DNA from: Eledone cirrhosa
Taxonomy: Eukaryota
Assembly: GCA_964016885.1 (NCBI GenBank)
Contig: OZ024749.1
Span: 5,518,001 to 5,582,000, forward strand
Length of the DNA: 64,000 nucleotides
Direction of reading: 5' to 3'
Below, one piece after another: positions 245-62,140 of this stretch. Position numbers and translations under genes: made by a program. The notes beneath the pieces were generated by a model. It did no database searches and had not been told where the DNA came from. It saw nothing but the letters and a program-made list of their open reading frames with translations. How positions within the stretch are numbered: the first letter of the stretch is position 1; each line of letters begins with the position of its first letter.

Positions 245-980
245 ATATATCTATAACTATTTATCTATCTATCTATTATATATTATATATATATATTATA
301 TTATATATATATATTATATATATATAGTAAATTATATATATATATATATATTATATTATATATATAGTAAATTATATATATATTATATTATATATATATA
401 TATTATATATATATATAGTAAATTATATATATATATCCTAAACCGACGGTAGTCGGTTTAGTAATATTGTTGTCTTAGTGATTTCGTTGGCATATATATA
501 TTATATTATATATATATATAGTAAATTATATATATTATATTATATTTATATATATTATATATATATATATATTATATATATATATATATATTATATATAT
601 ATATATATATATTATATATATATATATATATTATATATATATTATATTATATATATATATTATATTATATTATATATATATATTATATTATATATATATA
701 TTATATTATATATATTATATTATATATATATATATATATTATATATATATATATTATATTATTTGAAATCCAGCCGAGGTTAACTTTGCCTTTCATCCTT
801 ACGAGGTCGATAAAATAAAGTACCAGTAATGTACTGAGTATTTGCTGGCATTGTGCCAAAAGTAGAAACGATTATATATACATTATATTATGTATATATA
901 TTATATATATATATATATATATATATATATATATATATATATAAAATATATATATATTATAAATATAAATATATATAAAT
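245..980. repeat. Degenerate (TA)n/(TATAT)n microsatellite with embedded small hairpin element and SINE fragment
   Basis: Direct reading; the Y/I ORFs here are artefacts. Confidence 0.95.
764..875 (+). mobile_element. 5'-truncated tRNA/Meta-type SINE (family S)
   Basis: gccgaggttaactttgcctttcatccttacgaggtcgataaaataaagtaccagt...gtagaaacgattat, matching full copies elsewhere in the window. Confidence 0.9.
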
Positions 981-1584
981 TAATAAAAACAATGAAATAA
1001 AAACAAAGAACAAGTTCCTTATATTAAAAAATTCATCATTTTACGATCGTTTCTAGGATATATATGTGTGTTGGTATGTATATCATATAGATCTATGTAA
1101 AAATATTACAATCTATCAGGGGAAATATACATACCTTCACATATACAAGCCGTCCTATATATGTATGGGTGTGTTGATGTGTGTACATATATATATAAAA
1201 ATATATGAGTATATTAAATTCAGTGTATATATATATATATATATAGTTGTACATACACGTGTTTGTCTCTCCCTCTCCCCCTCTATTTATTTATATATAT
1301 ATATATATATATAATGTATATAGAGAACAATGAGTAAAAAACATCTTATCTGTCATTTTTCATATATTTTTCTTCGCTAAGCAGAAAAATGATTACTTTT
1401 ACCTTAACTCTCATTCCTTCACACCCTCTCTCTGTCTCTCTCACACTCTCTCTCCGTCTCTATCATCCCCCCCTCTCTATCTCCCCAAACCACTTTCTCT
1501 TCACCACCAGCATCAATACCGCCACCTTCGCAACAAATACCGCCTCTGGCGGTGATGTATATTGTAAGAAATCCACCGCCCAGG

Positions 1585-2125
1585 AAGAGATAAGGAAGAA
1601 AGAAAGAACTGAGAGAAATGTAGAGAAATGGAGAAGAGAAAGACACATAGAAAGAAAGAGAGAGAGAGAGAGTGAGAGAGAGAGATACTGAGAGAGGGGG
1701 GAGGGCAGAAATAGTGTGGAAGTCCGAAGGAAAAGGAAGAAGTACAAGAGAGATATAGAGAAGAGAATGCAGAGATATATGGGGAGACATAGAGAGCAAA
1801 GGAATAGATTGCGCGGCAGAGACAGAGAAGGAAAGGCAGAGATAGAGAGGGAAAGGCAGAGATGGAGAGGGAAAGGAAGAGAGAGAGAGAGGGAAAGGCA
1901 GAGATAGATGGGGTGACAGAATGAGAGAGAGAGAGAGAAAGGCAGAGATAGATGGGGTGACAGAAGGAGAGAGAGAGAGAGAGAGAGAGAGAGAGAGAGA
2001 GAGAGAGAGAGAGACAGGGAGGGAAAGGCAGAGATAGATGGGGTGACAGAGATGGAGAGAAAAAGACCGGTAGAGAGAGAGAGAGAGAGAGAGAGGGGGA
2101 AGGAAGGAGAGAGAGACAAGAGAGA
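1585..2125. repeat. (GA)n-rich low-complexity tract with repeated ggaaaggcagagatagatggggtgacaga units
   Basis: Direct reading. Confidence 0.9.
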
Positions 2126-3064
2126 AGAATGTTTTCTTGGCTAGTCATCAGTAGGAAGACTATTTTTTGTGGGGGACATTTTCTTCCTATGTTTAGGTTT
2201 GGAATGATTAATAAGTTAGTATCTTAGCAGGAAGAAGGACAGACAATATTTCAGATAAGTCCATGAAAAAATTAATAATAAACGATGTATATATATATAT
2301 ATATATATATAGAGAGAGAGAGAGATTACATGAAACAAAGTTCTGTTTAAATCATTTATTTGCTTACAATTGTTTCTTCCAAACCGAGGTTTGGGATCTT
2401 CGGAGCAATTATTCAGTGATTTTTAACATTGAGCTATTTATCTTACTGGTAATAAGATAGTAATAAATTACTGTCTTTCACTATTTAGGGTATAATATAT
2501 ATATAACTATAAAAGGTTTTAGTATATACATAACCATAAATAGTATCCTTAATACTATATATATATATATATATATATATATATATACAATATGGTCTAC
2601 ATTGCCTTCGTTATTATTATCATTGTTGTTAAAATAATATCTAATATATATATATATATATTGGTATATAATGGATGATCGCATTTAATGTCCGTTAAAG
2701 GTTCTTGGCACTACCATTGTTACAATCGCTTTCCTCTAACCATGGGGCTTGGAGACATGAACCGAATGCTACCATTCTATTTTATATCAATGTGAACTGC
2801 TATTTCTAATAGCCATCTTTTCACCCCTTGATAATTTGTGTGTGAGACACGTTGGCTGAGCACTTCTGACAGGAACTAATAGATTGATTCTTTTTAGCTT
2901 CCCGTCCCCACGTAAAATTTGTAAATCAGTGGCTAGTTGAGAGATAGAGTCCTATCGGTTGCCAGTTGCTAATCGCTTTACCGTGTCGGTTGTCACAAAC
3001 AGTCATGACCAGTGTTGGCCGGTGTTTGGATTATGTCGATCGATTGATTAATGATTAGGCGATA

Positions 3065-3174
3065 CCCGATGATGAAGCCGCATATGCCGATTGTGCATTG
3101 TTGCATAATATATGCAGACAGATGGTGCAGTGCACCTTACTGCTGCATTAGTGCGGCAGAAACTCTAGTCCGGG
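3065..3174 (+). ncRNA. Type I hammerhead ribozyme-like motif (C3 mutated) in a Penelope-like terminal repeat ending in (TA)n at ~3322
   Basis: Stem I cccg/cggg; core aTGATGA 3069-3075; long stem II gccgca...tgcggc; GAAA 3159-3162; stem III ACT-ct-AGT; GTC site at 3170. Confidence 0.6.
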
Positions 3175-3350
3175 AACCTTATAGGCACCCGTTTTACGTG
3201 TGTTGTGTTGAGGCAAAAAACTATGTGTATACTCGGGTAATGTATCTTACATTGCCAATTGAGTGCGCTGAGATACAACCGGTACTGGCATTGATAAATA
3301 TGCTGGGTCCGTCAACCCTTATTATATATATATATATATATATATATATA

Positions 3351-59477: not shown

Positions 59478-59766
59478 AATAAACCTTTCAAGGATTTACA
59501 CAAGTCCAGCCTCCTGTCATTTCATTATAATATTTAACTACGTAATAACACCACCAACTACAAAAACAAAGACGGTTGAATTACTTTACGTTGAGTACTC
59601 TCCATATTATTACATTAAGATTGACCTTACAGAATTGACCAGCTCTATCCAGTGGTGAACCTCAAAACTGAATATATATATAGAGAGAGATTTTGAGTAT
59701 ATGTTGGTTGTATACCAACACTGACCAATGAGAGGAGAGGAGACCCTTTGACACTGAAATTCGTTT

Positions 59767-59966
59767 NNNNNNNNNNNNNNNNNNNNNNNNNNNNNNNNNN
59801 NNNNNNNNNNNNNNNNNNNNNNNNNNNNNNNNNNNNNNNNNNNNNNNNNNNNNNNNNNNNNNNNNNNNNNNNNNNNNNNNNNNNNNNNNNNNNNNNNNNN
59901 NNNNNNNNNNNNNNNNNNNNNNNNNNNNNNNNNNNNNNNNNNNNNNNNNNNNNNNNNNNNNNNNNN
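59767..59966. other. Assembly gap (200 N)
   Basis: Run of N. Confidence 0.99.
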
Positions 59967-61430
59967 CTAAAAACAAAAATGCAATCTATATGAAAGTGAG
60001 GCTGGAAAAGAAAGAAGGAAAGGAAGAAATAAAATAAAAACACACATGCAAACACAGTAACACACACACACAATTATATACATACATATATATATATACA
60101 TACATATACACATATATATGTGTATATAATACATACACATACATACACACATAAATATCAACATATCCATACACACAACATACATATATACAACCACACA
60201 CACATATATACACATATATATATATAGAAATATAAATATATATATACTCTTTACCTGTTTCCGCCATCGGCTGACAATAATATACATACACATACATAGC
60301 CATACACACATACATATACATACATACACACAATCATACGTATACACACACGTACATACATACACATACATAAATGCATACATATGCATGCACAAATTAG
60401 AAAAAATATACACACACCTCTACATATTCACACACGCAAATAAATATAAGAAAAAATATATATAAAATAAAAGAAAATAAAGACTATTATAAAGTTGACA
60501 GCGATAGAGGCAACAAATAAATGAACAAACACACGTGGTAAGCAATACACAATTGAACGTATACATACATACGTAAAAATAAATACATACACACACTCTC
60601 ACACATAAATATACATATACAAATACATAACACATACATACGCATACACAAATACATACACACACACACACACACATATATACACACACATATACATACA
60701 CATATATTTTAATTTTCCGCATCAAATTTTTCATATACTTCGTACGAGCATTTATGTAGTTTGCACTAGAATTTTTGTATCGTAGCGGCACCCTTAGAGA
60801 TAGTATTAGTATTCTTTTTCGGGATTCTGATTTATGATTTCGTATTAGTTTATTTTTTGCACTGTGTGGTTGCTGGCCTTGTGCCTAGGGTAGAAACCTT
60901 TATTTCGTATTGGTCTCGGGACTCTGAATTATTATTTCGTGGTAGTTTCTTTAGTATTTTGGCCCCCCACTTGTTGGCCCGTCACCGTAAGATATACTCG
61001 GTTGATTACTAATACGTCTTAAAAGGGTCTCATTATAATTCCGTCCCACCTAGTAAACCTTTCTTTAGTCTAGCAGTACCAGTGAGAGACTTGATAGCTG
61101 TCCTTAGGTTATAGTAACCAGAAATTGTTTTTTTTATAATTGTTTTTTTAACATTCTCGGTATTTTTCTATATATATACCCCATATTGTTTTACTGATTG
61201 TTCCGACTTCCTCCCCATCCCCTCCCTAGTATACTTACTTGACCTGCTGCCCAGCTGTAGTTGGCACTATCAACGCACGACTGGGTTTCCTCCACCCCCT
61301 TCTCCCTCTTTCTTCTACTGGCAGGTTCAGCTACCCCTTCCCACCACAAATTGCCATGATAGAATCATGTGTCTCAACAACAAACTTTTGACCAATCCTT
61401 GTGACAATCACTTTTACCATATATGGAATT

Positions 61431-61526
61431 ACCCCCTGAGAAGCTCGGCTATTCATATACCAGGATAAACATCTTCATTTAGTCCAGAATTAGCCGTCGA
61501 AACGGCTTGAGGTCAGCCGTCGGGGT
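61431..61526 (+). ncRNA. Family A hammerhead-like motif, all three stems present, core lacking one base
   Basis: acccc CTGA-GA ag.. cggctattc...gaattagccg tc GAAA cggct-tgaggtc-agccG TC ggggt. Confidence 0.65.
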
Positions 61527-61739
61527 CCTACTCGTTCCTATATATATATATATATATATATATATATAAACACTTAGAATATTTAATACTGCCGGCACTA
61601 GTATCGAGCACCTTTGGCATACGCTACTTGGCAAATAATTATATGTATCACCTATCCTCCCTTTTTTTCTCTCTCTCGATACGTAAATACTGTATATATA
61701 TATATATATATTATATATATATATATATATATATATAAT

Positions 61740-62140
61740 ATATAAGAACAAAAGATGGTTAAAAGAGTTCCATGTATTTTATTATGCGCATTTCAAAAAC
61801 AAATATCATCATGCAATAATATTTGTGTTTTCATCAGATAAAACAGGAAGACATGCTATGAAGGTTAAAAAACACTTGTGGATAGTGCAGTTTTAAATCA
61901 ACATATCCACAAGTGTTTTTTAACCTTCATATCATGTCTACCTGTTTTATCTGATGAAAACACAAATATTATTGCATGATGATATTTGTTTTTGAAATGC
62001 GCATAATAAAATACATGGAACTCTTTTAACCATCTTTTGTTCTTATATATTATATATACTCCAGTCCTACAAATTGTAGAGTGCTACTTATCCGATATCT
62101 GCATTGCTTTATTGTACTACAATAAAACTCACCTCCTACA
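61740..62140 (+). mobile_element. Family B hairpin-plus-tail element (~145-bp arms) with a complete HHR in each arm
   Basis: 61740-61883 is inverted to 61904-62048; tail at 62050-62138; (TA)n flanks. Confidence 0.88.
61944..62012 (+). ncRNA. Intact type I hammerhead ribozyme motif (mirror copy at 61776-61844, minus)
   Basis: gttttat CTGATGA aaacacaaatattat..atgatatttgttttt GAAA tgcgca TA ataaaat; palindromic stem III ATGCGCAT; predicted cut after 62005. Confidence 0.8.

Follow-up and report, generated by a model that had tools for sequence, protein, structure and literature searches.

Penelope-like elements (PLEs) that carry an endonuclease (EN+) are known to insert with an inverted, 5′-truncated copy of their pseudo-long terminal repeat (pLTR) and a one-sided tail of 30-40 bp (PMC8557442 and PMC3846280, cited, like all sources below, for the parts of their text that were available). 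Such a copy, a tail at one end only and a bias towards (TA)n targets have already been published (PMC8557442, PMC3846280, PMC8969392), and paired hammerhead motifs on opposite strands, 100-700 bp apart, have been noted as well (PMC4209133). The palindromes have been interpreted as self-priming on antisense RNA (PMC3846280), while the formation of the inverted repeats and one-sided tails of PLEs is a named open task in PMC8557442. For the Poseidon element PAc of Anolis, the protein cuts and extends both strands in vitro, two internal reverse transcription start sites bound the tail, and ribozyme cleavage is dispensable (PMC11167929). For L1, the additional G at the junction formed by the RNA 5′ end has been put down to copying of the cap (PMC4038843). 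Here we analyzed a stretch of 64,000 nt (the window) from the 3.0-Gb genome of Eledone cirrhosa (assembly GCA_964016885.1, contig OZ024749.1, positions 5,518,001 to 5,582,000), and we find that its hairpins are head-to-head pLTR stubs of several PLEs inserted in (TA)n. The layout is real and mostly known; the families, of Hydra and Neptune-like PLEs, are new. We consider it probable that the stubs arise when both cut target ends prime at two fixed sites on the RNA and the copies are joined near a likely capped start.

An earlier note on this DNA had listed 12 sites with an inverted arm, a junction, a second arm and an unpaired tail. This arrangement was found at 11 of them, the remaining site (437-490) belonging to another repeat, and we assigned the following insertions in the window to seven families, A to G, where +1 denotes the fixed base that bounds the arms on their inner side:

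3353-3625, plus strand: family C stub, palindrome 3353-3563, tail 3564-3625
3840-4020, minus strand: family A stub (Hydra-type pLTR), tail 3840-3919, palindrome 3920-4020
4055-4258, minus strand: family A stub, tail 4055-4134, palindrome 4135-4258
14006-14263, plus strand: family D stub (Neptune-like pLTR), inverted tail-less arm 14006-14149, direct arm 14148-14204, tail to 14263
18541-18737, minus strand: family A stub, both arms reaching +1 with one C (18679) between them
26619-26723, plus strand: family A stub with 17-bp arms
28581-28797, plus strand: family B stub (Hydra pLTR), palindrome 28581-28701, tail to 28797
29101-29412, plus strand: family A-related insertion, a long spacer separating its arms; absent from the earlier list
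38935-39137, minus strand: family E stub, tail 38935-39022, palindrome 39023-39137
39689-39938, minus strand: family F stub, tail 39689-39764, palindrome 39765-39936, hammerhead core at about 39830
56412-56632, minus strand: diverged family G stub, tail 56412-56483, palindrome 56484-56632
61738-62139, plus strand: family B stub, inverted tail-less arm to +1 (61906), direct arm 61904-62050, tail 62051-62139

The tails measured about 55-88 nt rather than the 30-90 nt first given, the 30-nt figure stemming from 437-490. As had been claimed, the outer end of the inverted arm was fixed at a TA motif, where the template reads TAT in families A and C, ATAT in families D, E and F, and a longer TA run in family B. 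The (TA)n was missing on the tail side of the site at 38935, and the short-arm flank at 56408 was weak, consisting of a few TA bases with an overlap of 1 base. Smaller pieces of the same families also lie in the window. These include a one-armed, tail-less family A copy at 61430-61538, in which the upstream hammerhead half has a C3-A8 mismatched core, further family E pieces at 6327-6571, 14585-14724 and 54380-54427, one of them with a long spacer separating inverted ends, and diverged one-armed copies resembling family F at 17471-17606 and 58069-58224.

We investigated the abundance of the hairpins in a sample of 400 kb drawn from 40 scattered places in the genome. Hairpins were present in 41 of 226 segments between TA runs compared to 11 of 400 control segments away from TA runs, an excess that is more than chance. 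The strict form, with abutting arms and a tail, accounted for 21 of the 41 hairpin segments, and these 21 cases correspond to a density of about 50 stubs per Mb. Four identical 415-bp family B stubs occur within 11 kb at G000:C9:5405130-5416205 (L151-L152), reflecting either local duplication or an assembly repeat. When family A was searched genome-wide with its tail only, the inverted arm ended at the same base in 26 of 30 loci (a set that includes one window copy), in line with the expectation that the outer breakpoints of different copies coincide. A tail query for family B also returned 30 loci, comprising 12 full hairpins, five loci in one tandem array and one two-tailed copy, the remainder being one-armed, interrupted or clipped by the parsing script.

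Support for the palindromes in raw reads, which had been asked for in the earlier note, was obtained at the level of the families. Restriction site-associated DNA sequencing (RAD-seq) reads from three other samples, which test the families and not the window loci, left family A for (TA)n at window position 4132 in 1,245, 1,420 and 1,219 cases. In short-read contigs, the family B arm was joined at its inner end (61901-61907) to scattered points between 61945 and 62108. Since the ends and the joints are thus contained in reads and short-read contigs, the families are not assembly artefacts; no long read spanned the window loci.

The suspected PLE origin was borne out: pLTRs of PLEs that bear an open reading frame (ORF) make up both the arms and the tails, with a link to an ORF for families A, B, D and E. 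The sequence downstream of the family B tail, read from the tandem array, led to full-length elements (loci L171-L188), in which the 3′ terminal sequence is repeated ahead of the ORF, as in a pLTR. Their 799-residue ORF, P0001 (L181:1593-3989), comprises a reverse transcriptase (RT) and, at its C-terminus, a GIY-YIG endonuclease; it has the DKT and YRDD motifs, a CxCX5C linker, and CxxC and CxH in the endonuclease, and lacks CCHH. The Hydra clade is characterized by DKT, the CxCX5C linker and, at the C-terminus, a GIY-YIG without CCHH and with CxxC and CxH (PMC8557442). P0001 matches these motifs and, by eye, follows the sequence of Hydra-1_Obim motif by motif (PMC8557442), and the (TA)n preference is likewise common to the stub families and this clade (PMC8557442). 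However, P0001 represents a family separate from the described members of the clade, including Hydra-1_Obim, with an Asn-rich stretch ahead of the linker and, in P0001 and its copies, RWI or RWT in place of RWK. The Asn-rich stretch (residues 575-655 or thereabouts, between the RT and the endonuclease linker) recalls the N-rich inserts of rotifer Penelope elements (PMC3846280). A search of P0001 against Pfam gave no match and one against PDB nothing useful, and in the ESM Atlas it fell among HTH_animal, GIY-YIG and RVT_1 clusters.

P0001-like ORF pieces preceded family A in 20 of the 30 loci found with the family A upstream sequence as query, and the proteins preceding families A and E were 27-56% identical to P0001 over the matched pieces. 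The family E pLTR in L159 lies about 1 kb downstream of a Hydra-type endonuclease. We assign families A, B and E to positions downstream of Hydra-type ORFs, A and E being placed by their similarity to P0001 only. An ORF-bearing copy of family D (L151:192-3212) contains ORF P0002 (L151:705-2411), encoding an RT and a GIY-YIG domain, and P0002 together with the following frame supplies a CX4CxxC linker, CCHH and, at the C-terminus, a GIY-YIG. With a linker of the CX2-5CxxC form and CCHH, this ORF is classed by its motifs as Neptune-like, and family D as lying downstream of it. P0002 is almost unalignable with P0001. The Neptune clade is characterized by an RT fingers domain without an insertion. 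About 125 residues separate RT motifs A and B′ of P0002, a distance that by look exceeds that of the Neptune sequences in the supplement to PMC8557442; this spacing is reminiscent of the insertion in the fingers of Naiads. For family D, the sole repeat of the terminal sequence is the inverted copy, and the insertion that holds it (L151) is truncated. In the 64-kb window itself, no PLE ORF was found.

A full type I hammerhead motif, for which cleavage is predicted only, is present in families B and C. In the family C stub, whose relatives share both ends, the core lies at 3482-3488 and GAAA at 3515-3518; in the direct arm of the family B stub at 61738-62139 the core lies at 61951-61957, with the predicted cut after 62005. 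Family F and a relative of family G (L014) have a hammerhead core, family E an altered one and family D the core and stem II only, while the core of family A is the U3-A8 variant described in PMC4209133. Among the 150 of 184 Rfam matches listed, the hammerhead was missing, and the hairpins gave just sub-threshold microRNA-like matches. As the stubs are very common and resemble microRNAs below the Rfam thresholds, they can be mis-annotated as miniature inverted-repeat transposable elements (MITEs) or microRNAs. Folding of the 45 nt past the internal end gave weak hairpins in families B, C, F and G; the hairpin of family A was partial, and family D formed none. RCTC...GAGY-like words occur a few bases past the internal end in families A, B and F, and the tails of A, B, C and F share such words; in family B they recur past the end of the tail, as in L174.

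Non-LTR retrozymes consist of head-to-tail tandem hammerhead units, whereas the stubs are head-to-head, and only one family B array (L067-L071) fits that description. This array, with L189-L190 (G000:C18, about 29.48-29.49 Mb), consists of head-to-tail 296-bp units, each with a hammerhead motif, and has an inverted piece at its end, forming a retrozyme-like satellite made of the pLTR and the start of the ORF. Tandem retrozymes derived from pLTRs are described in a 2026 preprint (10.64898/2026.07.22.740005).

We then asked how the tail is distributed between the two outer ends. In family A, 68 of 70 pairs had one tail-bearing and one tail-less end, the other two being mis-pairings by the script. 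Eighteen full-length family B loci were fetched, and each of the 13 with both ends visible had a single tail, which was on the inverted copy in 11 and on the direct end in two. The rule extends to family D, in which L151 has an inverted, 5′-truncated copy with a one-sided tail. The earlier note had placed one of the primings at the RNA 3′ end. This does not hold, because the end of the tail is not the 3′ end: the template of full-length family B runs beyond the tail into the ORF, and both start sites are therefore internal to the RNA. The tail-less end overlapped the (TA)n by 3-4 bases in nine of 11 sites, by 8 bases in one and by 1 base in one. The overlap with an internal TA motif is thus real, and pairing of TA bases may help priming. 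However, every arm-plus-tail template contains 3-14 alternating runs of at least 3 bases and uses a single one, so that microhomology alone, which had been proposed to pick the site, does not choose it. Outer ends in family B varied by about 8 bases inside the TA-rich stretch. Two opposing primings, as first proposed, are supported by these data, since the tail can lie on either side and either arm can reach further in.

The inner ends were counted in samples not picked by their junction; L001-L030 (family A) and L091-L120 (family B) were excluded because the hairpin query carried the extra G. Relative to +1, 34 of 70 family A arms ended at or before +3, 19 at +4 to +10 and 17 further out. The inner junctions, previously thought to scatter, are thus not evenly spread and pile up at one base in family A. 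The arm reaching further in was the tail-less one in 16 family A pairs and the tail-bearing one in nine, with 10 equal (n = 35); in family B the corresponding numbers were 10, one and three (n = 14). In the family D stub at 14006-14263, the inverted tail-less arm is also longer than the direct arm. What looked like a fixed inner limit in family E proved to be only the edge of the query. In L054, L204 and the window insertion at 29101-29412, extra sequence lies at the stub centre between the arms, suggesting template jumps.

The joints themselves often carry an additional base. Genome-wide, one-base joints between two full arms were G/C in 522 cases and A/T in 79, compared to none for a reversed-pattern control, while two-base joints numbered 99 in all. 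The stub at 4055-4258 illustrates this: its tail-less arm begins at the fixed +1 base (4201), and an untemplated G precedes it at 4200. In 38 of 39 copies that read through +1, the template base ahead of it was T. In 30 of the first 40 G/C joints on C1, an arm with a tail faced one without; the G was on the former in 15 and on the latter in 15, so that these joints were not made by a single hairpin master. The two arms of a stub belong to the same subfamily: over the five positions that vary most, they agreed in 27/28, 28/28, 27/29, 27/29 and 28/29 copies, compared to an expected 0.36-0.51. The base that bounds the junctions, and at which they pile up, is likely the transcription start, and the untemplated G is likely a copied RNA cap. 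We take the context of +1 to resemble an initiator motif.

These observations can be assembled into a pathway. A GIY-YIG endonuclease would cut both (TA)n strands, after which one target 3′ end would prime at the end of the tail and the second at a site 55-88 nt upstream of it, presumably with help from a few bases of TA pairing in either case. With the enzyme bound at the 5′ pLTR of a capped mRNA, both cDNAs would be short and would run off the cap; their 3′ ends would then be joined head to head by microhomology, a template jump or end-joining, leaving short inserts. If the enzyme were instead bound at the downstream (3′) pLTR of a read-through RNA, one cDNA would become the long ORF-bearing arm. 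In this scheme we infer the presence of a cap, how many RNA molecules take part and which enzyme joins the copies. On balance we lean towards a more general formulation, in which PLE integration is a reaction with two primers on capped sense RNA. Each cut strand would start at its own fixed internal site, and the inverted pLTR would be the joint of copies that ran off the cap, in the manner of a retroviral strong stop. If this is true, the stubs show, without data other than DNA, where priming and transcription start in each family, in at least two PLE clades.

Several observations weigh against two primings on a capped sense RNA. True exceptions to the tail rule exist, L081 having two tails and L100 and L294 none, and no ORF was found in the loci examined for families C, F and G, which have the two kinds of end in common with the others. 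The extra base is weak in family B (about 10 of some 40 informative rows among the first 100 listed), and family E copies mostly read through the presumed start. Agreement between the arms could also be explained by gene conversion or by one active subfamily, so that a single RNA molecule is not proven. Lastly, CC and AA occurred at 10 and 13, respectively, of the two-base joints among the first 50 loci, so that untemplated addition could supply the C without a cap. These two-base joints also speak for an alternative without a cap, in which RT stalling or RNA cleavage at hammerhead stem II sets the inner limit and the extra base is untemplated tailing. The +1 of family A does lie in the stem II loop region, and in a few cases (window 26616, L047 and L066) an arm stops at the predicted cut site, although in the window stub (26619-26723) a CG overlap accounts for the junction equally well. 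However, in family B the core lies about 65 nt downstream of +1. In family A cleavage is predicted at +42, where few arms end and where a pile-up was sought and not seen, and one-base G/C joints far outnumber both the A/T joints and all two-base joints. We regard this alternative as unlikely.

A single priming could make the inverted arm if one cDNA folded back on itself or antisense RNA primed itself, which is the published reading of head-to-head palindromes (PMC3846280). It would account for arms that share a subfamily and private variants, as in L293, and for the perfect palindromic joints common in family B. Nevertheless, if the tail-bearing cDNA had folded back, the tail-less arm would have to be the shorter of the two, while it was longer in 16 of 35 family A and 10 of 14 family B pairs, and in 11 of 13 full-length copies it was the arm with the ORF. 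Moreover, a sense strand made in this way cannot acquire its tail from sense RNA, and the extra G is equally frequent on either arm. Such an origin is, in our judgment, quite unlikely, and the counts favour two primings on capped sense RNA over self-priming on antisense RNA. The version in the earlier note, two primings with TA microhomology picking the internal site and a random junction, draws on the overlap of at least 3 alternating bases at the tail-less end in 10 of 11 sites and on the variable ends of family B. Against it stand the unused candidate runs in each template, the pile-up of junctions at +1 and the reported initiation at sites without homology to the cut DNA (PMC11167929), and we hold it to be very unlikely. 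Finally, we give hardly any credence to the hairpins being MITEs, descendants of a single palindromic master or artefacts of the assembly; this explanation is already refuted at the family level. Most of the 30 loci found with one family B junction as query share that junction, as a single master would predict, but it occurs on differing subfamily backgrounds and has a 3-4-base overlap. MITEs have symmetrical terminal inverted repeats and an invariant interior, while the stubs have one-sided tails and junctions that differ among copies, in agreement with the earlier remark that this is not MITE geometry, and ends and joints are contained in reads and short-read contigs.

The repeat at 437-490 falls outside the stub architecture:

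437-490, plus strand: terminal 54 bases of another repeat family, with a fixed hairpin

This family has 105 genome-wide matches. The hairpin was at the fixed terminus in all 20 fetched copies (L301-L320), and 16 of the 20 extended beyond the end of the window copy into a longer element. The family is young, its terminal hairpin follows TC, and a minisatellite lies inside many copies. The window copy breaks off at about the same base as L303, L308, L314 and L315, and L318 has tandem copies of the hairpin. We presume that the family may be of the rolling-circle type. The window also contains about 20 copies of an abundant repeat of about 190 bp that resembles a short interspersed element (e.g., 8720-8911, 37656-38050, 52467-53356 and 62795-63189), and ORF fragments at 35917-36639 and 22425-22967 that by eye resemble pieces of retroelements of the long interspersed element type.

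Compared with known systems, the stubs follow the EN+ PLE layout in their head-to-head inverted copy, single tail, (TA)n targets and type I hammerhead in the pLTR. They differ from it in their tails of 55-88 nt and in being mostly pLTR-only, with arms that stop at one base plus an extra G. In the twin priming of L1, two primers come from one cut, and the two cDNAs copy adjacent, non-overlapping parts of the RNA. The pathway proposed here would share with L1 the two primers from one cut and the extra G at the RNA 5′ junction, but both cDNAs would copy the same part of the RNA and the second site would be fixed. Stubs of this kind, with arms bounded by one base and an extra G, were not found in the literature searched, which covered few subscription journals, and neither were a cap-derived G or two-primer joining in PLEs. 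PAc belongs to another clade, and in the text available PMC11167929 neither explains an inverted arm nor maps a capped start; nonetheless, it resembles the stubs and the proposed pathway in that both target strands are cut and extended and two internal start sites bound the tail.

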